Origin: Arsenophonus sp. NC-TX2-MAG3
GTDB taxonomy: Bacteria; Pseudomonadota; Gammaproteobacteria; Enterobacterales; Enterobacteriaceae
Direction: 5' to 3'
Assembly (NCBI GenBank): GCA_052174495.1
Contig: JBQMRR010000044.1
Span: 56,425 to 120,424 of the forward strand
DNA length: 64,000 nucleotides
The notes under the pieces: generated by a model
Databases searched by the model: none
What the model saw: only the letters and a program-made list of their open reading frames with translations
Told to the model about the DNA's origin: nothing
Program-made: the position numbers and the translations under genes
Part shown: positions 33,714-52,400 of the stretch, one piece after another
Numbering within the stretch: the stretch's first letter is position 1
Layout: each line of letters opens with the position of its first letter

Positions 33714-36700
33714 ATGAAAAGAATGTTAATTAACGCAACTCAACAAGAAGAGTTGCGTGTTGCTCTTGTTGATGGGCAACGTCTTTATGACCTAGATATT
33801 GAAAATCTCGGACACGAACAAAAAAAAGCAAATATTTACAAAGGCAAAATTACCCGTATAGAACCTAGTCTGGAAGCAGCATTTGTTGACTATGGATCAG
33901 AAAGACACGGCTTTCTTCCAATTAAAGAAATTGCACGTGAATACTTCCCTAGTTATTATCAACCACACGGTCGCCCAAACATAAAGGATATTTTAAAAGA
34001 AGACCAGGAAGTTATTATCCAAATTGACAAAGAGGAACGAGGAAATAAAGGTGCCGCGCTAACGACTTTTATAAGTTTAGCTGGCAGCTATCTTGTTTTA
34101 ATGCCTAATAACCCTCGCGCAGGTGGGATATCGCGACGTATTGAGAGAGAAGATCGTATAGAACTAAAAGAGGTATTATCTTCATTAGAAATACCTAATG
34201 GTATGGGATTAATTGTCCGTACTGCTGGTGTAGGTAAATCTGCAGAAACGCTTAAACATGATTTACAATATCGTCTTAAGCATTGGCAAGCAATAAAAAA
34301 AGCAGCGGAAAATCGAGCAGCACCTTTTCTTATTCATCAAGAAAGTAACGTAATTGTGAGGGCATTTCGTGATTACTTGCGCCCTGACATTGGTGAAATT
34401 CTAATTGATAATGCGAAAATTGTCAAAATGGCTCGTCTTCATATTGAAGCGATTGGTCGTGAAGATTTTGCAAGTAAAATTAAATACTACACTGGAGATG
34501 TTCCACTATTTAGTCATTATCAAATTGAGTCACAAATTGAGTCTGCTTTTCAACGTGAGGTTCGTTTACCATCAGGTGGTGCACTAGTTATTGATACAAC
34601 TGAAGCATTAACTGCTATCGATATTAATTCATCACGTTCAACCCGTGGGGGTGATATTGAAGAAACTGCATTAAATACCAATTTGGAAGCCGCTGATGAA
34701 ATTGCCCGTCAATTACGGTTACGGGATTTGGGTGGATTGATTGTTATTGATTTTATTGATATGACACCCGTTCGCCATCAGCGTGAAGTTGAAAATCGCC
34801 TGCGTGAAGCCGTATGCCAAGATAGAGCACGTATTCAAATCGCTCGGATATCTCGATTTGGTTTACTTGAAATGTCACGACAACGTTTAAGTCCATCACT
34901 TGGTGAATCTAGCCATCATGTTTGTCCCCGTTGTAGCGGTACAGGAACAATCCGTGATAATGAATCACTTTCACTTTCTATTTTACGTTTGATCGAAGAA
35001 GAAGTGTTAAAAGAAAATACCCATGAAGTACATGCAATTGTACCGGTACCAATTGCTTCTTATTTATTGAATGAAAAACGGCAATCAGTAAACGAAATTG
35101 AACGTCGCCAATATAATATACGTGTTATTATTGTTCCTAACGATCAGATGCAATCACCGCATTATAATGTAATCCGTATTCGTAAAGGTGAAGAAGTTTC
35201 AGCATTAAGTTACTATCTCGCGCAATACCATGAAGCTGAAATCAATAATCTAACAGATGATGCTGTTAATGATAAAAAGTTACCTGAACAACCTGCTATT
35301 TTTGCTTTTACTCTTCAATCTCAAGCATATACAAAAAATGCTATGGTTGGTAAGAACAAATCAAGTAAACAGAATAAATCAACCAATAAGCAAGATTTTC
35401 GAACTCTGTTTAATCGAATTAGTTATTTCTTAAAAAGATTATTTATTAAATTACGGAAACTAATTAAAGTAATTGAGAAAAAATTTAAAAATAATAATGA
35501 TAAGCAACATGATAATGATCATAGGCCAACTCAACGGCATGAACAGAATATTAATATTGATAACCATCAATATTGTAGGTATATCGATGAGTCTAAATCG
35601 TATAATAGCCGTAATCATAGAAGTCATTTTAATGATATTCAAGAGAGTGTTGCGCGTGAAATTCAACAGCAACCTCGCGAACAGCGAGCTGAAAATCGCT
35701 GTCGTCAGGAAGAAAAAAAAGAGCTGCAACTTAAAACTAAAACTCAACCACTAGAAAAGAAAGAGGATGAAACAGAAAGAACAGTTATTGTTTCTCATTA
35801 TTATCAACAGCCTCAACTGATTCAATCTGTGCGGGTCGCAAATAGCGTAACTGAAGAAAAAAAACTCTCTATTGATGATAGAGAGTATCAAAATATTAAG
35901 CTTCCTGTTATTAGTGGCGCAGAGGTAGTGCCTGCTTTGTTAATTCCAGAATCTATTCTGCCAACTGAATTAACAGCGAAGCAGAAAAATATAGATCTAC
36001 CGCTTATTACAGAACAGGATGAAGCTCAAAAAGTATTCAGAAATTGTACTAATGAACAACAAGAAACGATTATTCCACGAAGATCAAGACGATCTCCCCG
36101 GCACCTACGCGTTAGCGCGCAACGACGACGACGTTATCGTGATGAACATCAAAACAAATCATTGATATCATTAAAAATACCAGTTGCTTCACCTAAATTA
36201 CCTTCAGGTAAAGTCTGGATCCAGCACCCTGTCAAATTCAATGAATTAAACCAAATATCATCAGATAGTAAAAATAAGATGATAATCAATAAAAAGATAG
36301 TATTTTCTAGAACTCCAATTGATTGTGATAACGTCATTGGTAAAATTAAACTAGAAGAAAAAATAGCACCAATTAGTAAAACGATTCAATTAACAATATC
36401 GGAAAACTTACAACTTTTTCCTAAGGTATCGCTTATCCCCGTAAATATTCAAGATATAGAACAAAATGAAAAACTTTGTCAATCACATCTTGAAGCAAAA
36501 GTCATGGCTGAAAACAGCATTAATGTCGTTGTAAAAACGCAAGTACAGAATGAATCACAAAATCAGCTACAAAATGCTCAATTAGTTAATGATGAATTTT
36601 TTATAATCAATGAGATTAAAAAAGCTAAATATTCAGTGCATGAAATCAGTCAGGAAAAAATAACAAACCTATCAGATAAAAATTATAACTATGCTAAGTC

Positions 36701-36968
36701 AAATATATCTTCTGTGAACGCTGTTATTGCAAAAAAAGCAAGTAATCAAAAAGAAAAAATTGCTGCAATAAAATTGGGCAAAAAATCAGGGTATTCTCAT
36801 TCTCCGACTACGAAAGCACCAGGGCCGGAAATTACTGAAAATTATATGGAAATTAAAGCTTATGTGCGGCGACCTGTAATAACTTTTTATGGTAAAAATG
36901 GTGCAGGTGGTCATGTTGCAACAAGCATAGCGACATCCAATATATTTAAACCAAATAATAATAAATAA
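33714..36968 (+). CDS. rne: Ribonuclease E
   Basis: [21 protein letters not shown], catalytic AIDINS and [16 protein letters not shown] zinc link, [12 protein letters not shown] / SGKVWI enolase-binding region. Confidence 0.98.
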
Positions 36969-37275
36969 AATGCCCTAATTTGACAATTTTATTCTGAATT
37001 TTAATTCACTACTTATTGCCGTTTTAATAGAAAAATCTTTTTGTAAAAAATATATTTTTAATTAAATTAGGAATAAAGATATCTCAATTGATTACTTTAG
37101 TGCAGATAAAGGGTGTGATGGTTATCATCTTGTGCAATATGCTCTTTAGAAAATTATCAAAGTTATCGCTTTAATTCATAATATAAAACACGATTAACAC
37201 AAATAGGCGCGCAAGTTATTGAAGAAAATCTTTGCTATGATAACCGGCAAAAAAATATATTAGCTGATATTCCTA

Positions 37276-38603
37276 GAGTTATCAGTAAAAATCTGGTATA
37301 TGATGTTCAGGTTCCGCTCCATTCTGATCTTTCGTGAATCTGTTCTTCATTCTTAAATTACATGGTTATTTACTAGCAGCAGAGTAAAAGGAAGTAAAAT
37401 CCCCTTAGTAGCGATTCCAGTTTTTTTTGAGCAGACAGAAGCAACTTAAATAGCATTAAAGAATCGTTTTTGAACTACAGCGTTTCGCACGTCAGTTTTA
37501 TATCTTCTTACACAATCGCAAAATTCGATTCAATTAGATTTATTGTTCTTAATTGATACTAAGTGTACTGACGGGAAGGATAGAGTGGCAGTTATTTCTT
37601 CTTGATTATTCTCCACCTTCTTCATCGCTGAGGAATACTTCCCTGAAAACCTTGCCAATAAAAATATCAAGGACTTTATTAATGGCATAATAACTCTCTG
37701 CTACCTAGAACTTCTTCACTTCACCCTTAAGCTTTCGATTGTATGGACTTATGAAGTGAAGGAGCACATTAGCTATTTTTATACCCAACAGCGTTATTGG
37801 TATATTCAGGAATATCTTCGTTATTGTATTCCAAAGCTAAGGATATCGTTTCCCGTAGAAAAACTCTAGTAGATATAGTTAAGTCAGGCGCTCACCAACC
37901 ATAATACAGTGAGTCCGATAACAAGAAACAAGAAAAGGTGATCAGTTTGCCTAATAAAATAACAATATGCCTTCAGCCAAGAAATAAACGTTAGGCGTAT
38001 TGCTAAATCAAGCAAGTACCACATTCCCTGTACTCTTTAAGTTATTGCTGTTTCAATCTGTTCATGATGGTGGTACTGCAGAGAGACTATGTTCTTTTCA
38101 CCGATAAGCGGCTTTAAAAATTTCATGAAAATCACGATAAATAATCTCTTGCATATACAGGATGCAAGTTAGAAATTCTTCGTCGATTTTTATACACTTT
38201 AGATAAAGGCTAAAAACGAGCTTTAGAAGTATATTTTGTTACTACTGCTATTCCACTGATCTTAAGTACTTTAATCTCAATATCGCCAATATCAGTTTGT
38301 ATAGTTAGGTGTAGCAGATAACTGTTGCGGTCGATGGTAAAGCGGTGTTGAGCATATTATTGCAACATGGTTTTGAGATCAACCTCAACAGCGGTGCTAT
38401 TAGCTACTCGCCACTATTACAGATGCATTCATGCAAGAGAATGACAGGTAATATCCAGTTTTCGCGAATAGATGTAGAATAAATTTTCATGGCATATCAT
38501 CTTTCTATTGTTGACATCCATTCATAAAAATCAATAAGCAGAATATATCAGAATCTTCCAAAACTCCATTACAGAAAAAATGAGGAGAGAATAAGCATAA
38601 CTT
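37276..38603 (-). mobile_element. Degenerate IS256-family element (copy 5)
   Basis: End motif GAGTTATCAGTAAAAATCTGGTATATGATG at 37276; colinear with the other copies; flanks do not match each other. Confidence 0.85.
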
Positions 38604-39120
38604 TAAGAGGATATCTTAGTAGATTTCATTGTATATGCTTGTTTTATTTATGAAATATTTTTCATGGAGAGGAGATTATTTTAAAATCACAAGAATTAAA
38701 TATAGATGTGTTATAAATTGCTTTGGAAGCAGAAAAGTAATAAATGTTTACAGTATAGCCAATTTTACTTATATTTAATAAGCTTGCGCTGATAAATAAA
38801 ACAAGCCATCCTTTTGTTTTTATTAATTTGTGTTATTAATAACCTAAATTAAGTTAATCAAATAATGATAATAAGTAAATTTTTAAAATTATCACCAAAT
38901 ATAGCATGCTAGCTTCAACATCTAATGGTGATATTCAATTCAATTATCCATAATAACTTATTATTACAGATAATTTAAAATGCAGAATTTATTTCTGGTT
39001 GGATTCCCATTTGAGTCACTAAAAATAAATTAATAAAAAGAGTAAAAATATTTATTGTTAGATTAGAATAGTTCAAGAGTGTTAATAACATGTTGTGCAC
39101 CTAAAAATTAGAAAACTATA

Positions 39121-40560
39121 TTGGATAGTAAATATAGATTCTCATTTTAGTTTTACTGTTATAAAATATTTTGGCAGCATATCCTGCGCTTGATCAAATT
39201 GTACAATTTACCGAAATCTGAATTGACTAAAATTCAGGATTATCAAAGAGTCTTAAATTTTTTTTATGCTATATGGATCCTTAGCTTTCCTGAGCTAAAG
39301 CCAGTTATAGTTACAGATATTAAACCCAAATAACCAATAGATTATTGCTATAAATAAAGTTGAATTTGTTAAATGTATTTATGGGATATTTAGTATATTT
39401 AATAGTTGTATTCTTGATTACAACAATATTCAATTTGATTTAAAGTTATTTGTTATATTTTACCATAGCTTTTATAAGCTTTATTGTTATAGTTATCAGC
39501 AAGATAACTCACGTTAGAATTTACCAAATATCTTACGCGCTTGCTATACGGATACGTCCTGATGACATTAACTGATGTAACAATTATAAAGAACTACTAG
39601 CATTAAATTAGAACATTTGACAATTAAAACGCTATTGAGCATGCAAATACTCATGATGTATTTTAGCCGACGTTTTGCTGCAATTGAAATAGCAAAATTA
39701 ATTAAGCAAGTACAGCTAAACATGCTCAAGTATTTTTTTGAATTTAAAAAGAAAATAAAGTTCGTTTATTGATTAATATTATTACTATAACTCTGTTAGT
39801 CCATCTTTTCAGAATGTTTTGCGCAATATAAGCTAACAATACTCTAATTTCGCTACTTACCTTCTATCTAGAAAATTGTATACGATTATTACTTATGATT
39901 TTGCAGCAGATATTATATCTTATTGTTAATATTAAATAGTAATATACTAAAGAAATATTTATATACACCTAAAGACGAGTTAATAAGTGAGTTAGTATCT
40001 CTATTAAACTGATTCATTTTAATAAATACCAAATTCTGGTATCGTAATTCATTACACTGCAAAACAGATAATGTAATAATATTACAGCACTTAATTTCGA
40101 TATATAGCTAAATAATTTAGCTATGATGTTGTAATAAAATAGTGAAATGTGTGATAAAATTATTCAGCTATTTACGAATAAAAATCTTTTCTTACAGTAA
40201 CTGGTGTACATGCTAAGTTTTATTGCAGTTTTTTGCTTATAATGATTATTAATAATGGTCATTATTTATTAAACTTTATTATAAAATATACTTACATTAG
40301 ATTTTTAAATTTTACGATCTGCGCATGAAGCAACTATTTTCATTATTCTGTAACTGGGGATTACTCAACCAGACTGACAGAACAAGAATACCTTGCCTGG
40401 TTAGAGTATCGGCACGATAGATTAACCAGTAAGAAGATAATCGAATAGTTTCAAACTATCGAATAATTTTTTCTAAAAAATTAATAAGATAAAAATAAGT
40501 GCCAGTAACTAAAATGCTGCAGATGATTCCAATCAGATAGAAGTTAATTTAGTTTTTATC
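39121..40560 (+). pseudogene. sbcB: Exonuclease I (SbcB/XonA) pseudogene
   Basis: Fragments YPALDQIVQF, LRACY..IRPDDIN*, LEHLT..IEHANTHD and EQEYLAWLEYR match HPALDRPAQF / MRACYALRPEGINW / LEHLTKANGIEHSNAHD / AEQQRWLEHR; convergent with plaP as in enterobacteria. Confidence 0.9.
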
Positions 40561-40654
40561 ATACTACATAAAAATAGATTACCTAATATATAGCTAAAGG
40601 TAAAATGATTAGCTTTTGATCTGGAAAACTGTCAATAGTGTTAAAATTTAATCA

Positions 40655-42034
40655 CTAAACATCATTCATTTGTGGTAATGGTCGGCGAAAACGGCTGGTG
40701 ATAATTGCCATATAAAAAATTCCAATTGCCGCCCATATCATTCCTAATAACATGGAAGTTTTCTCTAAATTGATCCAAAGCACTGATACAGTTAAAGCCC
40801 CTATAATAGGTAAAATTAAGTAATTAAACTTGTCTCGCCAAGTATGGCAATGACGCTCTTTAAAGTAAAATTGTGAAATAACTGAAAGATTAACAAAGGT
40901 AAAGGCAATTAATGCACCAAAATTAATCAACGCTGTGGCAATTTCCATGTCAAACCAAATTGCTGTTAATGCTAACATACCAACTAGAATGACGTTAAAA
41001 GCAGGAGTTCGCCATGTTGGATGAACATAACCAAAAAAACGCTCAGGAAAAACACCATCTCTTCCCATAACATACATAAGACGAGAAACTCCTGCATGCG
41101 CTGCCATACCTGATGCTAATACGGTTGCACAAGAAAAAACTAAAATAATAGACTGAAAAATGGCACCAGCAACATATAATATAATTTCAGGTTGTGATTC
41201 GTCAGGTTTTTTAAAATATGAAATATCAGGAAAATACAGCTGTAAAAAATAAGAAACACCAATAAAAATCAGACCACCAATTAAGGCCGTTAAAAAAATC
41301 GCTTTTGATATCACTATTCCTGCATTTGGTGTTTCTTCTGATAATGAACTGATACCATCAAAGCCAAGAAATGAAAAACATAAAATCGTTGCTCCGGTAA
41401 TTATTGGAATTAAATGCGCCTGTTTGGAAGTAAAAGGTTGCCATGACCAAATTTGCCCAGAACCTTCACCTTTAGATAATCCATGGATCAAAACAGTTAA
41501 AAAAACTAGCATGACAGCAATTTGAATAACCACAATAATGGTATTTAAGTTAGCGACAAAATTGATACCGCGTAGATTAAAAATAGTCATCAATAAAACT
41601 AATCCAACAACAAAAATCCATGTCGCAACACCTGGGAAAATAGCTTCTAGATAAATTTTTGCTAACAGTATATTAATCATCGGCATAAATAAGTAATCAA
41701 GCAAAGATGACCACCCCACCATGAAACCGATATGTGGGCTCATAGATTTTTGTGCATAGGTATAAGCTGATCCCGCCGAAGGGAATCGTTTTACCAATTT
41801 ACCATAACTCAATGCAGTAAAAAGAATAGCAATCAAAGCAATTATATAAGAAGAGGGAACATGTCCATCAGTTTTTAATGACACTAAACCAAATGTGTCA
41901 AAAACCGTCATTGGCTGCAAATAAGCCAGTCCCATCATAATAACCTGGATTAAAGTTAATGTTTCAACTAGTTGAACGCGATTATTTATTTCGATAGGTT
42001 CTTTATTGAGAGCTAATGTAGTATTATGTGACAT
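40655..42034 (-). CDS. plaP: Putrescine/proton symporter PlaP (YeeF, APC family)
   Basis: [61 protein letters not shown]; 12-TM-type APC permease. Confidence 0.92.
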
Positions 42035-42239
42035 AGATAAAAACCCCTACAACTTTCAATTTTGCCTTAATGTTCTGATTAAACTGATAGTTATAAGGAA
42101 GACTTCGTTCACGCGAATAGGCTGAGAAAAAATAGAAATGAGAAAATAAGGCTTCTTTGAAGCTGAGCGGTCTGTAGTTATCATTAATGTAGCAACGATG
42201 ACCGATTAGCATAGATGCAAAAATAGATAATTGCGCCAT
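42024..42239 (-). CDS. Putative leader/uORF peptide (71 aa) overlapping the plaP start
   Basis: GAGGA RBS 8 nt before the ATG at 42239; open for 71 codons in AT-rich DNA; stop overlaps the plaP ATG (ATGTCACATAA). Confidence 0.6.
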
Positions 42240-42568
42240 AATAACATTCCTCACTTACAGTAGTCTGCTTCAGTTAGCTTTTAACTAAATCTTTTTTCTA
42301 AAAGATAGTGTTAACTTCGGCTAGATTTCCATGTTTCATATAAATTAAAGAAATCAGCTTATAAATAAAAAAATAACTGATGCAATTAATGACCATCAGT
42401 TATTTCTGATTGCGCATTTTGCACTTCATCTTCTGATATAGCAATATTTTTTTTAATTTTTTAATAAAGAAAATTTTCAGTGTTTAATTCATTTCAAGAT
42501 CAAGAAAGATAAAGATATAGAAGATAATTGATTTCCATTAATAAATGAGAAAATATTGATTCTTTTTA

Positions 42569-43899
42569 GAGTTATTGACAAATCTAGTGTATCTAGTTTT
42601 GGTCCATATCACTCTGATACTTCATAAATCTATTCTCCATCATTAAAATTTAATATTGTTTACTACTAGTGTCAGTAGGTTAACTAGTCACGGGAATTCA
42701 GCCAAGATTTTCTTAACAGACAGGAGCAACTTCAATACCATTGAAAAGGTTATTTTGCAAAGCGCAGTGTTTGCGTATTGACTTCATAGTTTTACTGTCA
42801 TAAAACCCGACTCAATCAGATTCGTCATTCTTATTGACGTCCAGTTCACTGATGGGAAGCCGTAGAGTACTAGCGTCCTTCTCGTTCTTTCTCCAACTTC
42901 TTCATCGCTGCAGAATATTCGCTGAAACCCTTGCCCCAATAAAAATACCAAGGGTTTTATTAGTGACATCGCGGCTTTCTGCTAGCAAGCCTATCAATTA
43001 TTTTATGTAGCTAATGGCATTAGTGCTGCGCACTTAGGAATATCTTTATTATTTTTTTAAAAATTAATGACATCCTTCCCGTAGCAAACCTGAAAATACG
43101 ATTAAGTCACGCACTCTCAGAGTATTGAGAAGTTATACTAAGTTTTCTTCTGACTCTTGATGAGAATTTTTTTTAACCCTAATCAACTTTTTACGTTTAT
43201 ACGGTGCTGCCAATGGTAACTAGTAGGCAAAGGCGATCATCTTTCCTGATAAAACGGTTATCCAATCTACAAGAAATATGCATAGCGCATATATTGCTTA
43301 GATCATTCAGCTACTATTGTCTATGTTTTTCAAACCATTGCTGTTTTAGTCTCTTGATGTGATTTCTGGCAGAAGGAGATCCAGATGTGATTTTTCATCA
43401 AGAAACCCACAGAGCTTCGTAAAAATCACCAGTAGATATGTTTTGCTAGGTTATACGTCCCACATAGTAGCAAGTCTTTGGCATTTTACACGCTCCAGAT
43501 AAGACAGCAAGCTGTTAAGGTATATTTCTGTTACCGCTGCAATCTCTAACCTTATGCACCTTAGTCTTAAGATCACCAATACTAGTCTATATTAAATTAG
43601 CTGTGGCAAATAACCCTTACGAATAACGGTATGACATCGTTTATCGATAACGCGGCATTCAGTATGTTCTACAAGATAGATTCGAGTCCGCCTCAACAAC
43701 AGTGCTATCAGCTCCCCGCTACTATTACGAATGCATTCATGCAAGGGAATAATAGGTAATACCTGGTTTTACGGATACCTAATAGACTAAACTTCTTATG
43801 GCATATTATCTCTCTGTTGTTGAAATCATCCAGGGAATCAATCAATAGAGATTACGCTATCATCTTAGAAATATCATACACCAGAAATAAGTATAGCTC
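42569..43899 (-). mobile_element. Degenerate IS256-family element (copy 6)
   Basis: Ends GAGTTATTGACAAATCTAGTGTAT and CATACACCAGAAATAAGTATAGCTC; abuts an IS481 5'-end fragment at about 43900-44000. Confidence 0.85.
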
Positions 43900-46559
43900 G
43901 ATCATAGGCACCTTAATAGTAATTCTCGAACTATATTCTCAAATACCAATAATACGACAGGAGAGGGATTGATGTGGTGTATATTGTAGTTTCAAGTGAT
44001 AAATTATCAGTTATTAAACTGATGATAGATAATTCTCACTGATAAGTTGTGCAGATGCAACACGTTATGTCGTTCTGGTGCTTATAAATTGATTTAAGTA
44101 CTAATTTTTATATGAAAATGGAAGGTTTATAATTCAGTGAAATTTTTACTATCCAGTACTAATTTAGTTCTATATTATTGAAATTAATGTTTGGTTATTA
44201 GCAAATATAGGAAGTAATTTACTTAAAACTAATGTTAAAAAACAAATAATTTTTCCTTTAAAAAATATTTTATTTCACTATAAACAAGGTTTAATGACCT
44301 TTAAATTTTTTAGTATTTTACTAGGAAATCTTATTCAAGCTCTATCTGATATTACTATCAGAATGGGTTGCTTTTAAAGTGCTTTCTTCAGTATTAATTT
44401 TTAATTTTGATTAAAATTTTTCTAAATTAGTTTTTAACAGAGTGGGAGAATTCCAGCCGTAAAACTCCTTGTTTTATCTTCTCTTATTTTAAGAAAAGCT
44501 TGATTTTTAGGATCAAGAAAGGTAGGAAATCTTCCTCTATCCATCTTATGAGTTAACATAATTATTGACTGTAGTTGTACTTTTTAGTTAGAAATGATAA
44601 TATTTCAACTAAAATTAATCAGGATATTTAATATTTTTTGGATTTTTTAGTATTTTACTGCTTTTTTAACTTAAGTTATTCTGAGTCATACTTTCACTTT
44701 ATGTGATTCAAAAAAGAAGATTTTCACCTAATATTGCTGGAGTTAATATTCTTCTTATAATAACTATTGAGTGTATTGATGTTTATATCACCAGACCTCT
44801 AGCTGTTGCATTTCGAGAAAGTATTATGCTAACTGTGTAATTCTGTTAATCACAAGTGGTTTAGCATGTGTCTAAAAATAGCAATGGTTTTTGATAAAGG
44901 TTTTTTATAAAAAAATAAAAATAATTAATTATAATAAAAATATCTTAATTTTATGTTTTTAGTGTTAGATTTTCATCTAAAGATAACTATGCAATTGCTT
45001 ATATAGATAACTTTTTAGGATAAACGAATGGTTACTAAAAAAGAAATATGTGTGATTTGATTAGCACTAATAGAGATTATTAAAGTAGGGTGGTCCCGTA
45101 AGCGAGATACGAGGTTTGTCCTCTTGCTTACTGGTCTTGCAAGTCAATTAAAAGCAGGAATTTATTTAAAATAGTTTTACTGGATGCATGCATCCCTCTA
45201 CTCTGTAAAACTTATCAAAGATAATTTCTGAAGATTTTAGAAGTTGAACTGAAAACTATTTTGTTTAGTTGTTATAAAATAAAAAGTTGCATACCTAAGG
45301 TCTTATAATTAAGTTTATTTTTGTTAAATAATTCATTAGAATAGCGTTTTTCACAAAACTACCAAGGTATGAAAAAATATTATCGTTTTACTAAAAATAC
45401 ATTTAAATCTTGTGCACCTAATCGTTAAGAGATTAACGATTAAAAGTACCATATTGATTATTTAGGCATTGAAGCCAGTGAATAATCTATAAATATGATC
45501 TTTAACAACTTATAATCGCAGCGTTGATCGCTGATGTCGTCAAACAATCTATCCTATTAAAGGTTAGCACAGATAGGAGAAAGCTTAGAAAACTAAATAT
45601 TTGCCGCCGTTTCTAGGCGGCAGCTAGAAATAAATTATCCGATCTAATCGATAGATAGCACAAAACTGCCGATGTGCAAATGTTATTAGTGCAGTATATC
45701 CTAAATCATAGGGATATATCTGCTATATTATAACTGCGAACAGGCTATCTGTTTTATTTATCTAACAGGTGAAAACCACTCAAGTGAACTGAAGGACATT
45801 ACCAAGAAGGCATGGATGTTAATGTTAAGAAATAGAAAAGATATTGACTCAGTAAATTATCTCCGATACTTATATCGGCCGGCTATAAAAAGTGGCTATA
45901 CTATCTGCACATCTTATAGAGCTGATATTAAATAATCGGAGGTTTAATTAAATCGGATTAAATCATCTGGCTACATGATTAGCTAACACACTATCAAAAA
46001 CTAAAACTTGTGTAATATAAAATGGCGTATACGTATTTTGCGCTGCATGATAACAAAACTATGCAGATGAGCCTTCCTATGATGTCGTGCTGTATTCGAT
46101 GTAGAAATTACCTAAAACCATTAAGTAGCGTTGACGCAAAACTAGTAGCAATATCGCTAGTTATAAGGGGCTTCTCCTACCTCGTATCAGATCAGCCTGT
46201 TAGTGTGAACTACATTTGCATTGGGAGACGGGATTACGGGATAAATTTTAAAATCTTCCATCCAGATAAGAATGGAAAATCTCTTTTTGCCAAAACTGAC
46301 TTTTATTATCGATAGCAACTGCGCTATATTACCGGCAGAAGCCCATAGTTTTTAAGAACTTACTGCCGTTATTTCATGTACAGTATTGGATTGTTTTCAC
46401 CCATAGCAAGTTGTTTCTCTACTATTCAAATAGTGGCGGCGGGAAATAAATGATACGCTCTATGCATATATTACTGTTATTTTAACCTGCCTGGATATTA
46501 AACAGTTGACTAGCATTCCTAAGGAAATGGATAAAATTTATAAATAACTCTTGCTCGAT

Positions 46560-47400
46560 ATCTCCAAACTTTAATGCATTTTATCGGTTGTCTTAGCGAA
46601 AAAAGTTGCTAAAGATCATATCTTCTATATGAAGAATTTTCATTATAGAGTTTGTCATGAAAACAAATAGTTATATAGATAAAGAAACTTCTCTTTATCT
46701 CTATAAGGTAAAGCTGTATCTCATTAATTGCTCGGCGAAAATCTATTGGATAATATTAATTCATACATTGAAAGAATTCATTTTACTTTTATCTTGGCCA
46801 TATTATCACACTGAACATCCTATCTACTATAGGAGAGAAACCAACTTATTTAGGGTTACAGTGATATCATTATAAAATCTCCTATTGCAAAAAAACATTT
46901 AACAATCTTATTTGCAAGTTCTCTGACAAAACTACATCACAAGAATAAATATTTTAGTTATCTGCAATGCATATTGCACAGCTTGACTTTACAAGAGTTA
47001 CCGAAACAAACAGACGTTAATTTTAAAACAGCATTTAGATTGCGCTACTGCTTTCTTTTATTAATTGGATAACCCAAAATAAGAAAGATATAAATCTGGA
47101 GATGGAGGAGATAAAAGGAAATAATAAATCCTAGTCTTAATCGCCTGAGATCGATAGAGTGTAATATAATTGATGAGATTCTTCTTAATGATTAGGAAAT
47201 TAAATCACTCTTTAAATAAAAAGTAAAGGCATCCAATTTTGCTAAATTAGATAGAAAATTGGTTTACTTTGTTTTTATAAATCAAAATTTTATCGGAGCG
47301 TGTATTAATTAACTTAATGCACTAATTTTAGTGATATTAACTCTAAATTTAGCTTAATAACTCTTATTTTTATTTTTATGAGTTCTTTCTGATAATAATT
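46560..47400 (+). mobile_element. Degenerate IS1595-family transposase remnant
   Basis: Frame ..LTKLHHKNKYFSYLQCILHSLTLQELPKQTDVNFKTAFRLRYCFL resembles the IS1595 LARLRHKEKW..Y..CM..SLT.RK.AK..GV...TAFRWRHRFL HTH region. Confidence 0.75.
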
Positions 47401-48440
47401 TCGTTGTCTGCTTCCCAAGTTGATCGTTGGTAAAAAGTACTTCTCGTTCACACAGAGCGCATTTGTATAAATTTATGTTCAGAATCCCTTCTTAATATAG
47501 GAAGGGTGAACATAGGAAGGGTGAATATATCCCCGTTTCCAGTTTTATAAGTCATCTACAACGTCTTTATACCTTTGGTAATAACGTGCTTCGTTTCCGA
47601 TTTAAAAGAAATGATAGTAACGTACAATTTTAAAATGCTTCGCCTGGAATATTATTAATATAGTTCTAGATAATCTTTTCCTACGTCAGAGTTTGCTTAC
47701 GGTATATTCCTTACTTTTATAATCATAAAAATGATGTACAACCACTTTTTACCTCAAAAATGCGCAGTTTTAAATGCGAATGCCAGTGAGATGTTTAAGT
47801 TAGCTTCCAGAGGTAATTTTATGCTATCACGCCCATTTTATCTTTTTAGTGAAGTACACTTTCAGTAATCCTCGTACTTGTACCTTCAAATATTATGTTT
47901 TTAGTGCTTTCTAGCATGGATATTCCTACAAGTCTTAAAAAGGCACCAGGATTTATCAGCTCGTCACTATAATGAATTAATCGGATGATAAAATCTCTAC
48001 CAGATTTTTTCAACCGATCTTCTTTTAAAAAATATCTTCAACCTATACAGCATGTTTAATATCTAGCCCGTCATAAGTGACGGAGAGATGAAAATGTGAA
48101 TGTTGATTGAGTTATCGAGCATAAATATATAAGGCACAGAATATAATTTTAATACTTTGTTTTGTGATCACTACAATATAGAACTAGGGATACACCTGGC
48201 ACAAAACAGAGTATTAAGTAGCGATAAATTATTTTAAAAAGGCTAAAGAAGATGAGAATAGTAAAAGTAATATGTTGCTAGTTACAGTCTGCTAAGATAC
48301 GAATTTTCTGTGTGGGGTGTAATCATACTGCTCGGTAGCTTTAAACCCGTCTTAACTGTAGATTTTTAACTTTATAACTACGGCAAAATAATAGTGGTAA
48401 TATTCAGGATAGGCGTAGTAGTAAAACTGTATACTTACAT
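47400..48440 (-). mobile_element. Degenerate IS91-family transposase remnant
   Basis: FKATEQ, TFTI(S)HLL*PF*NN, INPGAF, VVHHFYDYK, AKHFKIVRYY match IS91 TnpA motifs. Confidence 0.82.
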
Positions 48441-48449
48441 AGTTATAAG

Positions 48450-49135
48450 TGCTTCAGATAAATATTCCCTTGATATATAGACTGATTTATAAGTTAACGC
48501 TTTCAGCGTATTTTTAAGAAAGTTATTTTAGATATCATCAATAGTAAAAGTAGTTTAATTTTACAGAAGATATACATCTTGAACTCTTGCCAGAAAAATA
48601 GAAATTCTCATACACTGTTCATGGATTTATCAGGTTTATTGGCCCAGGTATCTTTAATGTTTCTCCCAGATGACAAAAAAGATTAAAATTATATCTAGTT
48701 TCCCTATAAGTAATGAATTCATCAACAAGCATGCTTTAATCATTATCATCAATGCAGTTTTGTATCCAGGATCATAGCCTTAGATTGTGGGTCCGTTTTG
48801 CTCAAAAATCCTGATAATTGTGATTTATAGGCGAGATAATACTTGCGTATAGAAAAATAAAAAGCAGAATCGAATACATTGCATAGATCTTTTTGGTGTC
48901 TAAAAAAAATTAGTTGGTCTAACCCTCATTCATTTTGAGATGGAATTTAAAAAGCGCTTTAAATAAGCAGGCAGTGTATAAATACGTAAATTGCATGTTA
49001 TCTTCTGGATTTACCTAGTTTACGATTTCTAGGAGATTTATCCTGAGTCATCTGGATGAGAATTCCTTTAAGTCAACGTATTACGAGTATAAAATAATAC
49101 TTAGCTAATAAATATCCGCAAAGCGGCTTCTAGCT
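48450..49135 (-). mobile_element. IS91-family remnant of a second, IS1294-like subtype (5' half)
   Basis: RFADIY (cf. MLPRFADIFQ), HPDDS (cf. QPEGS), NFYFSGK (cf. NLHFYARK); not colinear at DNA level with the other IS91 copies. Confidence 0.6.
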
Positions 49136-49179
49136 GAGCGCTGTTCATATCATAAATGTGTTAAGGTTCATTGAAGAGG

Positions 49180-49994
49180 ATAGGTAATTTATATCTGTAT
49201 GATTTAAGCGATATCGCTACATTTATTTCTTGTCCGATGAGATATATCGTTTTGTTAAGCAAAATGATCGCTTTTATCCGCTACTCATTATCGGTAGCAC
49301 TGCGCATTGACATAAGAGGATAATTGGAGTCAAAATGCTTATCAAAAGTTAGAAGTAAACTGAGCGTAACTTTTCAATGGTTGATGAACCCTGAGCTTAA
49401 ACGTATCTTTCATGGTTGGAAAGATAGTCGATGCTTTTAGTTTTTTGAATGTAATGGCAAAGATATTTCCAGATATATAGCACGAATCTTGCTGTGTCCA
49501 TAAATAGCTAATATTCTAGCTTCATTCCCCTAAAGAAATGCAAGCGAAAGTTAAGAGTAAACTGCGGAGAGCTCTGGCTATCAGCCCGGCGCCGATGCTA
49601 TCAACAAAGCCTTTAATGCTTTCTGAAAATGTTATTATCGAAGTGTATTCTACAGCGATGAAGAAGCTAGAAAAGATCAAGAAAAACTGTTGGTATTCTA
49701 TGACTTCCAATTAGCGCACTAGGCATCATAAGAACTAGAAATATAATTGAATCGTTTTTTTGTGACAGTGAGTCTAGGAAGCTGAGACACGCGAAGCACT
49801 GTGGTTTAAGAAAAGAACTCTTTTAATGCTATTTTAGTTTCTATCCTCTGTTCAAAAAAGTGAAAACCGGCTAAATGGAATTGAGCTGCTAACCCTGATG
49901 TGGTAACCAAAATTTAATTTAAAGATGGAGAACAAATTTATGAAGCATCAGAGTGGATCGTAGTCTGCGTCATACATTAGATTTACTAAAATTC
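49180..49994 (+). mobile_element. IS256-family element, 3' part only (copy 7)
   Basis: FKDGEQ tail and right end CATACATTAGATTTACTAAAATTC. Confidence 0.8.
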
Positions 49995-50915
49995 TCAAGC
50001 AACTACAACCCCCTAAAATTAGCGCTCCTCTTCCGATCAACAAAGAGTTTGTATTTACTTTAGCTCAGCGTTATGAGATATCTAAATTTACTTTTATTAA
50101 ATGGCAGAAATAAGATGATGTTGATGATTACATCCATATTCTCCATTATTTGCTGATGACGCTATTCCCAAATAAAGGGTTCGTAGTTATTTTTTTGCGA
50201 AAAAGAGTTTTTTCTCTCGCCGATATTCTAGCGGTCAGCCGATTTCCTAAACTTCGTACTACTTGATCTGATCTGAATCTCTCTTTAATACAGGTATAGG
50301 AGGATGGAGAATTTGCATAAAATAAGGGGGGAAAGCCTCAAAGTCGAAACTATAAAGTATTTTAGGATACTAAGATGCTTATTTGCGCGTAGATGTGAAA
50401 TATCTTATGTAAATGCTAAATAAAACTTCAAGATGTTATCTTTTCGTAGGGATAATAGATCACATCATTTAATAGATTTTATTTATTTTTATAAAACTAA
50501 GACCGTAGCTAATTTGTAATTTTAATCGAATATGTCCATAGCTATTCATCGGATATTTATAGATAATAGGAAAAATTTACAGACTAATTTTTGCTCTGCA
50601 AAAACGTTCAGTCAGCAGAAAATAGGAATTCAACCGTTTATGTGCAAATCTTGGTATAGAATATTGATTTAGCATGTTAATTCGTTCTTCAAACGAATGG
50701 TATGTGGTTAAGCGATTTTATAAGCGAAGGAAAAGATACGTTGCAAAATCCATTACTTCAATTTTGTTCAAGAATTTGAGATCACTTTCCATTAATATGT
50801 TTAGTTATATAAAATCAGGAATTATTTTAATTAATTAATCAATATATAGTAATTAAACTCCATTGCAGTCTATAAAAGATTGCTTCAAAGTTAAATCTAA
50901 ATTATTCAAAATAAT
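49995..50915 (+). mobile_element. Near full-length degenerate IS481-family element
   Basis: TTTP..I, YLFVGI, QTNGM..RF and KDCFKVKSKLF fragments in order. Confidence 0.82.
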
Positions 50916-50919
50916 TATA

Positions 50920-51490
50920 CTATTTCCTGGAAATTATATCTATAAAAGATAACATTGTGAAGTTTTGATTGGCATTTGCAGAAGATATTCACATTTATGT
51001 GCAGATAAGGCAGGCTGTACTCGTAGCTTTAAAGCGTTTTATGTTCGGGTTCGGTGCACTTCCCTTTTATTTCACACAAATTTCTCCTCTGTTCCTGCAT
51101 AAACATAAATCTAGATCAGATTGAAATATAACAGGATTCAGGAATTCGCGTACGGACTGCTAGCAGATTCGTCGAGAGAGAAATATTTTCGTAAAAAATA
51201 ACTACGACTTTTAAGCTGGTGAAAGGGTTATCAGAAAAGTATGGAGAATATGGGTGTAATCATTAATATTATTTTATTTTTTCTATTTTAGTAACGGTAA
51301 ATTCGCAGATATCTCATAATATTTAGTAAAAGTAAACGCAAGCTATTTATTGGCCTGAAGAGCAGTACTAAATTTTAGATATTGGAGTTCCCTAATAATT
51401 AAGACTCATGATTATGACATCTTCTGTCAACTATATTTATAAGTAACTATCTTACAATAAATAGGGATGTGTGACTAGAAGCTAATAATG
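50920..51490 (-). mobile_element. IS481-family element, 5' part, inverted relative to its neighbour
   Basis: Close match to 12132-12620 (GGAATTCGCGTACGGACTGCTAGCAGATTCGTCGAGAGAG). Confidence 0.85.
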
Positions 51491-51499
51491 ATCCTAGAT

Positions 51500-52400
51500 T
51501 AATTACCTAATACTAGGTTCTCAATTAGTATAATACAAGGATTAATTAATCTACTAAAAATATTATTGATATTGACAAATAAAATTTAATTAAAACAATA
51601 CTGTTGATGATAAATCTTATTATATATTTAATAATTTTAAAAAAATTAAAAATATAATTTTAATATATTTATATAAATAAAGCCCTATTTTAGAATAGGG
51701 AGCATTAAGGCAAAAAGTTTTTTATATTATTACTCAGATGTATATAATTTATTAATTATTATTTATTAAATACTTAAATAAAAATAGAAGAGACTAAAAA
51801 TAGGTGATCAAATTTTTACAATAAATTTTAATATAAAGTGAATAAATTAAAATTTAATTTATAAAAAGTTTAATATTAAATTAGTAATTAATATATTGAA
51901 CAGTAATATTTCTGTTTTTATATAAAATTGATTTTCTTATTTTGTTTATTATATGCTAGTACTGTTTTAATAGGATTTTATCAATAATCGTTTATATATT
52001 TTAATATATATTATTTATTTTTTATTAATTAATTTATTGTTGGTTATTTATTTTATAAAGATAGTATCTTTATTGGATATAATTTTATCTTATCTTGTTT
52101 ATGATATTTAAAAATAATAATTATAACTAGATATTTTATTATCTTTAATATTTTTAATAATAAAAATATATTGTAATTTTTATTACATTTACTTGGTCGA
52201 ATATTAGACATTCATTTTTCTATCGTAATTTGATGTGTTTTATTATTACTTAATGATATTTTTTATGTAATCTATTATTTACGTTATTTTAACCAATAAT
52301 CTTTTTATTATAGATAGTAAAAGTTGGCTAAAATAGCCTTATTCTTAATATAACGTTTAATATAAATCAACGGGATACAATAATGCTAAGGATATTGCTA
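51500..52400 (+). pseudogene. truD: Highly eroded tRNA pseudouridine synthase TruD remnant
   Basis: Very AT-rich; retains L-R-I-G-A-L..G-K-K-F-I-L-L-L-R across frameshifts (cf. LRLGALKGNAFTLVLR) and a frame ending STG..A..IA* over the surE start, where truD overlaps surE in enterobacteria. Confidence 0.5.

Follow-up and report, generated by a model that had tools for sequence, protein, structure and literature searches.

We studied the region in front of plaP, the gene of a putrescine/proton symporter, in a stretch of 64,000 nucleotides from Arsenophonus sp. NC-TX2-MAG3 (contig JBQMRR010000044.1, positions 56,425 to 120,424 of the forward strand), hereafter called the window. On its minus strand an open reading frame (ORF) of 71 codons, the leader ORF, precedes plaP and runs into the first codons of that gene. 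A first-pass annotation, made from the letters of the window, had proposed that this ORF encodes a polyamine-sensing leader peptide with a motif like that of SpeFL. The comparison with relatives presented here points to a different kind of leader, related to the small E. coli gene yoeI. The features of the locus were the following:

40655..42034, minus strand: plaP (putrescine/proton symporter), 459 aa, intact, 68% full-length identity to E. coli PlaP
42024..42239, minus strand: leader ORF, 71 codons plus TAA, probable Arsenophonus orthologue of long-form yoeI
42247..42252, minus strand: Shine-Dalgarno (SD) sequence GAGGAA of the leader, 7 nt ahead of its ATG
42024..42034, minus strand: 11-nt overlap ATGTCACATAA, with the plaP start codon and the leader stop codon
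42165..42239, minus strand: N-terminal block, codons 1-25, degenerate in the window
42120..42164, minus strand: variable pyrimidine-rich, G-poor spacer, containing FYFFSA, with YSR just 3' at 42119-42111
42044..42107, minus strand: predicted hairpin sequestering the plaP SD (5' arm 42099-42081, 3' arm 42062-42044)
42107-42096, minus strand: conserved block CGAAGTCTTCCT, within the hairpin region
42047-42044, minus strand: plaP SD remnant GGGG, at the end of the hairpin 3' arm

The identity of plaP was taken from the E. coli matches of the window protein, which are annotated plaP. The leader start codon is the ATG at 42239-42237, where the minus strand reads GTGAGGAATGTTATTATGGCG; the leader TAA (42026-42024) lies 11 nt within plaP, whose own ATG is at 42034-42032. 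The first-pass annotation had placed the ORF at these coordinates, with a GAGGA ribosome-binding site, an ATG at 42239 and a stop overlapping the plaP start, and all of this was confirmed on the minus strand. The GTG at 42254, given in the ORF list as the start of the leader frame, falls inside the SD, and the ATG homologous to that of the window is used by every relative. The annotation had also attached weight to the survival of the frame amid stop-rich DNA. An open stretch of 73 codons is indeed unusual, with a chance of about 0.2% at the local composition (30% G+C), and stop-to-stop runs of at least 76 codons make up 0.19% of the runs in the gene-poor parts of the window. Seen from the window alone the leader ORF is therefore unusual, yet this is not decisive; the comparative evidence decides.

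Conservation of the leader ORF and kinship with yoeI

Relatives were collected by a PlaP protein scan with one genome per species, and 80 of 487 plaP loci were examined. The nearest loci belonged to Arsenophonus genomes (98-82% PlaP identity), followed by Moellerella, Photorhabdus, Proteus, Morganella, Edwardsiella, Hafnia and Enterobacillus; further loci came from Lonsdalea, Pectobacterium, Brenneria, Symbiopectobacterium, Serratia and Yersinia. The leader frame was open over 66-80 codons in nearly all free-living species, and the 68 distinct intact sequences span Morganellaceae, Hafniaceae, Yersiniaceae and Pectobacteriaceae (genera Arsenophonus, Moellerella, Photorhabdus, Proteus, Morganella, Edwardsiella, Hafnia, Enterobacillus, Yersinia, Serratia, Pectobacterium, Brenneria and Lonsdalea). 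These long leaders begin with M-G/A/E/V-Q, and in 68/68 the GAGGA SD was found 7-8 nt 5' of the leader ATG, its GAGGG variant only in Moellerella. Of the 80 loci scored for the overlap between leader stop and plaP start, 78 share the length of 11 nt; Brenneria populi (L061) has 8 nt instead, and Brenneria corticis (L044) has lost the leader body. With the frame open in distinct relatives from four families, the comparative data supported the earlier proposal that the leader is tied to plaP through overlapping stop and start codons and has a counterpart in yoeI.

Two departures from the long form were observed. In the Brenneria corticis locus (L044, 2700-3030) the leader body is gone and MGQ is fused in frame to PlaP, the upstream leader being otherwise intact; this natural deletion shows that the leader initiation site lies on the plaP mRNA. 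In Symbiopectobacterium (L049, L051) the leader is a 28-codon form.

In E. coli the same place before plaP is occupied by yoeI, a gene of 20 codons (MGQFFAYATVITVKENDHVA) annotated as 'membrane protein YoeI'. The first-pass annotation stated correctly that yoeI overlaps the plaP start, and the 11-nt overlap is identical. Other features shared with the long form are the GAGGAA SD, the M-G-Q-F-F start and an upstream leader with an STnc240 element, a GGCCGG hairpin followed by GATAGATA, and a hairpin directly before the SD (see below). The long form is longer by about 50 codons, which supply the motif APVPxG..C..DYGA, the C-rich spacer and the 5' arm of the SD-burying hairpin. The first 8 and the last 8 codons of yoeI align with the long forms; in this alignment yoeI looks like an internal deletion (~50 codons) of the long form, which is probably ancestral to the E. 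coli 20-codon gene.

The NCBIfam model NF033439, a 20-aa equivalog named 'membrane protein YoeI', gives the E. coli peptide 60.8 bits and showed no match at E <= 1 for the window peptide or for four long forms; the model fits the short form only. The long forms have no match in Pfam or NCBIfam. Among 5.8 billion proteins searched, 70 relatives were found, of which all the named ones are hypothetical or uncharacterised and none carries a Pfam domain. The long forms are known to public databases only as hypothetical or uncharacterised proteins, and NCBIfam recognises the 20-aa form alone.

Signatures of translation

Averaged over the 68 distinct sequences, there are 2.2 and 4.2 stops in the two remaining sense frames and 2.7-4.0 in those of the antisense strand. 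A conserved gene on the opposite strand, considered as the cause of the conservation, was rejected on account of the stops in all three antisense frames. Within nine clades of the leader the variable sites by codon position were 125/103/188 (of 612 each), and codon position 3 was the most variable in 9/9 clades; plaP, taken as a control, gave 66/27/289. The ratio of nonsynonymous to synonymous divergence (dN/dS, summed Nei-Gojobori) was 0.47 in the leader frame versus 0.89 and 1.00 in the shifted frames.

The leader stop left its own trace in the coding sequence of plaP. Codon 3 of plaP ends in T at all 80 loci, in eight different codons (CAT, GAT, TAT, AAT, CTT, GCT, ATT and GTT), and codon 4 is AAY or GAY, i.e., TAA or TGA when read in the leader frame; codon 5 showed no comparable bias. 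With codon 3 always ending in T across eight codon identities, the leader stop is under selection. These signatures indicate that the leader ORF is very probably real, conserved and translated.

A hairpin over the plaP Shine-Dalgarno sequence

The last codons of the leader hold the plaP SD (GGGAGG), and a conserved nucleotide block, ..AGG CAG ATG CGA AGT CTT CCC.., corresponds to the 5' arm of a hairpin. Codon use in the block is nearly fixed: CGA accounts for 53/53 Arg codons, AGT for 53/62 Ser codons and CTT for 39/40 Leu codons. In minimum-free-energy folds the block pairs with the plaP SD in every species folded, and usually with the AUG too; the free energy (dG) of the hairpin was -25 to -50 kcal/mol over ~95 nt in the relatives and -20 in the window. 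RNAalifold found CUUCCC:GGGAGG as the core pairing, with compensatory changes; this needed a nucleotide alignment of the 3' half, as the hairpin went undetected when the entire ORF was aligned under codon guidance. For the 29-pair consensus of a 32-sequence alignment, 76% of the cells were paired versus 34-55% with the partners slid, changes on both sides were seen in 80 cells versus 38 in shuffles (0/500 shuffles reached 80), and the covariation score was 0.30 versus 0.09-0.15; these shuffle statistics exaggerate the significance, as the sequences share descent and also supplied the structure under test. The leader ORF traverses both arms and stops just beyond the 3' arm, atop the plaP AUG. 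Folding and covariation together describe the 3' half of the leader as a covarying hairpin that is predicted to bury the plaP SD and AUG.

A hairpin of this kind raises the question of a purely RNA-level element, that is, a structured 5' untranslated region or polyamine-responsive RNA in which the open frame is an untranslated by-product. The strong covarying structure of the 3' half and the hairpins upstream would fit such an element, the synonymous divergence (pS) of the leader seems below a crude, unaligned estimate for plaP, and polyamines act on RNA structure, as in the example of oppA cited in PMC7815308. The explanation is nevertheless highly improbable in view of the coding evidence: a frame of 66-80 codons is kept in 68 sequences despite many indels, with stops in the other five frames; SD and AUG are conserved at the right spacing; codon periodicity and a dN/dS below 1 occur in the leader frame only; selection on plaP codon 3 preserves the leader stop; and no Rfam family lies over the ORF.

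N-terminal block, spacer and the SpeFL-like motif

The only peptide-level conservation of the leader is in its N-terminal 24 residues, away from the motif of the first-pass annotation. The family consensus is M-G/A-Q-x-F-x-F-A-P-V-P-x-G-x-x-C-x-x-x-D-Y-G-A. Codon choice in the block is varied, with all four codons used for Pro11, TAT 44 times and TAC 24 times for Tyr22, and four codons each for Gly23 and Ala24; its dN/dS is 0.29 and its pS equals that of the spacer. Because the residues are kept while third positions are free, and because dN/dS is 0.29 at a spacer-like pS, the first 24 residues appear to be under selection at the amino-acid level. Attenuator-style pairing of the block with the anti-SD arm, the 5' arm of the hairpin whose CUUCCC pairs with the plaP SD, was rejected, the duplex energies being no better than those of shuffles (mean z -0.04).

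The spacer that follows is poorly constrained (dN/dS 0.72). In the window it has 24% C, 9% G and 69% pyrimidines, and seven other representatives of Morganellaceae, Hafniaceae and Yersiniaceae gave 27-48% C, 6-15% G and 62-77% pyrimidines. It is less G-poor in representatives of Pectobacterium and Lonsdalea (G 21-24%). In Rho-dependent attenuation of the tnaC, speFL and mdtU type, a C-rich, G-poor and unstructured tract loses its ribosomes once the leader ribosome halts; composition alone does not define a Rho utilization (rut) site.

It is in this U/C-rich, G-poor spacer, and in the start of the RNA stem behind it, that the SpeFL-like motif FYFFSAYSR had been seen, and the resemblance proved to be a chance match. 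The local match FYFFSA/FHFFNA exists and covers six residues; BLASTP of the single pair gives E = 0.12, which is not significant, and at the family level hhalign assigns kinship with SpeFL a profile probability of 0.06%. The F-rich stretch is confined to Arsenophonus: the corresponding residues are STVYSAYRQ in Photorhabdus, SPLTYPRQ in Yersinia and LLLELSRS in Serratia. The codon after ..SAYSR in the window is GAA, which had been read as a possible mutated stop that once ended a peptide of 43 aa. A stop at codon 44 occurs in none of the 68 relatives; they run about 28 codons further and all reach the same stop inside plaP, which refutes the idea of a stop loss. The codons near the supposed lost stop are conserved as the 5' arm of the hairpin.

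SpeFL itself is a peptide of 34 aa, encoded upstream of speF, with an HIRRXXH sensor and a Phe-rich effector (F20, F26, F28, F30, F31); on ornithine it stalls at the stop codon after Arg34, and a rut site is associated with its leader ORF (bioRxiv 10.1101/604074). It resembles the plaP leader as a leader peptide before polyamine genes (speF-potE) in the same bacteria, and serves as a model for nascent-chain metabolite sensing. Its 34-aa length, HIRRXXH motif, Phe-rich core and stop directly after the effector are all absent from the plaP leader; the absence of HIRRXXH, already recorded by the first-pass annotation, holds for the window peptide and for all aligned relatives. That a 43-aa SpeFL-like arrest peptide (..FYFFSAYSR) lost its stop and now runs into plaP would find encouragement in the six-residue match and in a peptide that regulates polyamine genes by stalling at its own stop codon (bioRxiv 10.1101/604074). 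With the scores above, 0/68 stops at the expected codon, an F-rich part found in Arsenophonus only, local codons conserved as an RNA stem and no HIRRXXH, we give this model next to no credence.

The selected N-terminal block could also belong to a free-standing small protein, YoeI, acting in trans as a partner or regulator of PlaP, with the overlap serving only co-expression. The conservation of the 24 residues at the amino-acid level speaks for such a protein, as do the NCBI name 'membrane protein YoeI' for the E. coli 20-aa form and the finding that yoeI improves plaP complementation in E. coli (PMC11630599). The peptide does not look like one. A folded small protein was rejected on the AlphaFold2 prediction from a 39-sequence alignment (mean predicted local distance difference test score, pLDDT, 51.6; predicted template modelling score, pTM, 0.12; zero secondary structure), and no hydrophobic stretch of membrane-span length was found, the maximum Kyte-Doolittle average over 19 residues being 0.2-1.5. 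Moreover, over two thirds of the peptide the sequence is free of constraint (dN/dS 0.72) or follows from the RNA hairpin, and its length ranges over 66-80 residues. We regard a protein acting in trans as unlikely.

Another function without sensing would be membrane targeting, with MGQFFTLAPVPAGF, the hydrophobic N-terminus, guiding the mRNA under translation to the membrane ahead of the synthesis of the 12-helix permease. The moderately hydrophobic start is the sole part kept by E. coli YoeI (MGQFFAYATVITV), the plaP product is polytopic, and the coupling geometry would hand ribosomes straight to plaP. Against this, the most conserved residues (Cys and Asp-Tyr-Gly-Ala) are not hydrophobic, the hydrophobic stretch is short and broken by prolines, and no comparable device is known to us from these bacteria; we consider it very unlikely.

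Probable translational coupling of the leader to plaP

We conclude, with a probability of about 0.7, that Arsenophonus has in this leader its version of long-form yoeI, a conserved reading frame of about 70 codons that is translationally coupled to plaP. Ribosomes reading the leader ORF would melt the hairpin and terminate atop the plaP AUG. Termination at the overlap would allow initiation or re-initiation on plaP, which would be translated mainly in this way. Consistent with coupling, a yoeI-plaP construct restores PlaP-dependent toxin sensitivity in E. coli better than plaP alone (PMC11630599). The coupling model is also supported by the joint decay seen in Arsenophonus, in which leader start, SD or frame are lost together with a weakening of the hairpins, plaP remaining intact (see below).

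As to the first 24 residues, we would most readily see in them a cis-acting nascent chain through which elongation responds to a signal, with intracellular polyamine as the best candidate for that signal; a control step by an N-terminal nascent peptide is possible. Where ribosomes stop early or do not load, the hairpin would stay shut and the C-rich, G-poor spacer would be left bare. Speculatively, the bare spacer might permit Rho termination, and high substrate would then switch the importer off. Carried to its end, this would make the long YoeI peptide a new class of nascent-chain sensor, ancestral in Enterobacterales, in which APVPxG..C..DYGA pauses the ribosome on polyamine, the hairpin remains closed, a Rho site is exposed and feedback repression follows. 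We put it forward as a tentative idea that is rather more doubtful than credible. A sensor of this kind would have been overlooked because E. coli and its close relatives carry only the 20-codon remnant.

Several points weigh against the coupling interpretation and, above all, against its sensor extension. E. coli manages with the 20-codon form, without motif, spacer or long hairpin. Translation of the long forms is read from sequence signatures, the covariation statistics are inflated in the manner described above, and the best promoter-like site is separated from the leader ORF by an efficient-looking terminator within the STnc240 element (see below). Sensing, stalling and Rho action are purely inferential. 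The N-terminal block matches no known arrest motif, and part of it also makes small local RNA hairpins. Arrest peptides are typically conserved at the C-terminus, so that conservation at the N-terminus is atypical. In the window, finally, the N-terminal block evolves neutrally, and any sensor function has probably been lost there.

According to the papers of Kurihara, PlaP is the chief importer of putrescine for the surface motility and swarming of E. coli and of Proteus. It is also an entry route for toxins of contact-dependent inhibition (CDI; PMC11630599). In species outside the model organisms, a far longer and strongly conserved leader stands before plaP, with a selected motif, a predicted hairpin over the ribosome-binding site and an invariant stop/start overlap. 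The coupling model offers a concrete, testable mechanism for the control of polyamine uptake and would explain E. coli yoeI as a truncated leader ORF; if true, plaP would be the third polyamine gene controlled by an upstream ORF (uORF), beside those of speFL and mdtU.

Comparison with known leader systems

In secM-secA and other coupled pairs the downstream SD is held in a stem within or beside the upstream ORF, and translation of that ORF, or stalling in it, exposes the SD. The plaP leader is of this type in that the downstream SD is sequestered by a stem involving the upstream ORF. SecM differs in its C-terminal arrest motif, its N-terminal signal peptide and the lack of overlap with secA; no arrest motif was identified in the plaP leader.

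A second comparison is offered by mdtU, a translated uORF before the E. coli spermidine exporter genes mdtJI, where Rho and polyamine are involved (PMC7815308). As in plaP, the uORF precedes a polyamine transporter, its RNA is predicted to pair with the ribosome-binding site of the downstream gene (mdtJ) and its peptide is conserved across genera (PMC7815308). In contrast, the 34 codons of mdtU stop 106 nt short of mdtJ and its conservation is C-terminal, whereas the plaP leader has about 70 codons, overlaps its gene and is conserved N-terminally. Further, mdtU induces an exporter and the logic expected for the importer plaP is repression; the two leaders share no sequence similarity. The E. 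coli 3'-end maps of PMC7815308 contain no entry for plaP or yoeI. No description of the long ORF, the hairpin or a plaP/yoeI leader mechanism was found in the openly accessible literature, subscription-only papers being outside the search.

Decay of the leader in Arsenophonus

Within Arsenophonus the leader was found at different stages of decay. A. nasoniae and its close relatives have the canonical ..FAPVPIGHGCC..DYGA.., a plaP SD of GGGAGG or GGAGG and a hairpin of -30 to -40 kcal/mol. The clade of the window (window, L001, L003 and L011) retains SD, ATG, open frame and overlap, with the plaP SD shrunk to GGGG and a hairpin of -20 to -27 kcal/mol; for its N-terminal block, dN/dS comes to 0.89 among clade members and to 1.46 in comparison with the A. 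nasoniae clade. A close relative of the window (L002) has a CAG to TAG change inside the leader ORF. In more reduced Arsenophonus lineages the leader start, SD or frame is lost and the hairpins fall to -8 to -14 kcal/mol, with plaP intact. From these comparisons, the coupling device of the window probably still works, and its N-terminal motif and plaP SD have decayed, as expected in the genome of a reductive symbiont. The window copy is a partly decayed symbiont example, whose value is that of a pointer to the family.

Two further Arsenophonus loci deserve mention. In an Arsenophonus metagenome-assembled genome (L004) a frameshift fuses the leader ORF to plaP. In the Arsenophonus endosymbiont of Aleurodicus floccissimus (L008) the leader is intact, with the canonical motif, and the plaP frame ends after 263 codons, the reverse of the usual order of decay.

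The surroundings of the locus in the window are themselves poor in genes. At 37000-40650 and 42450-52000 there is no ORF of more than 120 aa and stops are abundant on both strands; these stretches adjoin an intact rne (33714-36968) and the intact plaP. Stop-filled stretches of this kind are the pattern of a pseudogene-rich, reductive symbiont genome.

STnc240 element and hairpins upstream of the leader ORF

In the window, the following features precede the leader ORF:

42365..42444, minus strand: promoter-like element and intrinsic terminator, equivalent of STnc240 (Rfam RF02074)
42444-42439, minus strand: -35 hexamer TTGCTA, with a 17-nt spacer to the -10
42421-42416, minus strand: -10 hexamer CAAAAT
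42404-42372, minus strand: terminator hairpin AATAACTGATG..CATCAGTTATT, with a T-run ending at 42365
42270..42288, minus strand: small hairpin directly 5' of the leader SD

The Rfam model RF02074 matches 42432-42365 at 47.4 bits (E = 7e-5), short of its gathering score of 55. At the homologous position it scores 67.6-71.9 bits, above the gathering score, in Yersinia, E. coli and Pectobacterium, and below it in Edwardsiella, Morganella, Serratia, Photorhabdus and Proteus; by position and score the window carries a diverged homologue. In the window and eight relatives, Rfam has no family over the leader ORF, its one match there being STnc240 upstream. The element was found upstream of the leader in every genus checked, from E. 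coli to Arsenophonus (L059, 2627-2690; L081, 1234-1308; L062, 2515-2581). The promoter-like hexamers are conserved across genera and the sequence between them varies; we infer that transcription starts at this site. STnc240 has been proposed to be a Salmonella-specific remnant of gabT (bioRxiv 10.1101/2021.10.18.464853). Its breadth fits an integral part of the plaP leader, either an attenuator or a promoter-sharing small RNA, better than the idea of a gabT remnant. A tiny ORF of the window, MKCKMRNQK, which runs into the terminator stem, was rejected as not conserved and overlapping the promoter-like hexamers.

The stretch from the terminator to the leader ORF contains a conserved hairpin, GAGGCCGGAC..TCCGGATAGATAA, which is degenerate in the window (~42300-42335, minus strand). 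Its form AAGAGGCCGGAC-loop-TCCGGATAGATAA is clear in L059, L081, L062, L017 and L032, and in Proteus the changes in it are compensatory (GGTCAGAC..GTCTGA); an RNA stem and a palindromic site bound by a protein are both conceivable. The GGCCGG hairpin shared with E. coli is degenerate in the window. The hairpin before the leader SD lies 2-5 nt ahead of it and has, in nearly all lineages, a constant position and unrelated sequences; in 38 distinct sequences the mean dG was -8.8 kcal/mol and the mean z -2.3 versus shuffles, with z < -1 in 33/38. Long-range pairing of the upstream leader with the ORF was rejected as inconsistent, since the minimum-free-energy folds differ from species to species. 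Structured insertions of about 100 nt, specific to their lineages, occur between terminator and leader in Photorhabdus (L017, 2586-2709) and Pectobacterium (L062), that of Photorhabdus having a weak, sub-threshold Rfam match to V_AS5.

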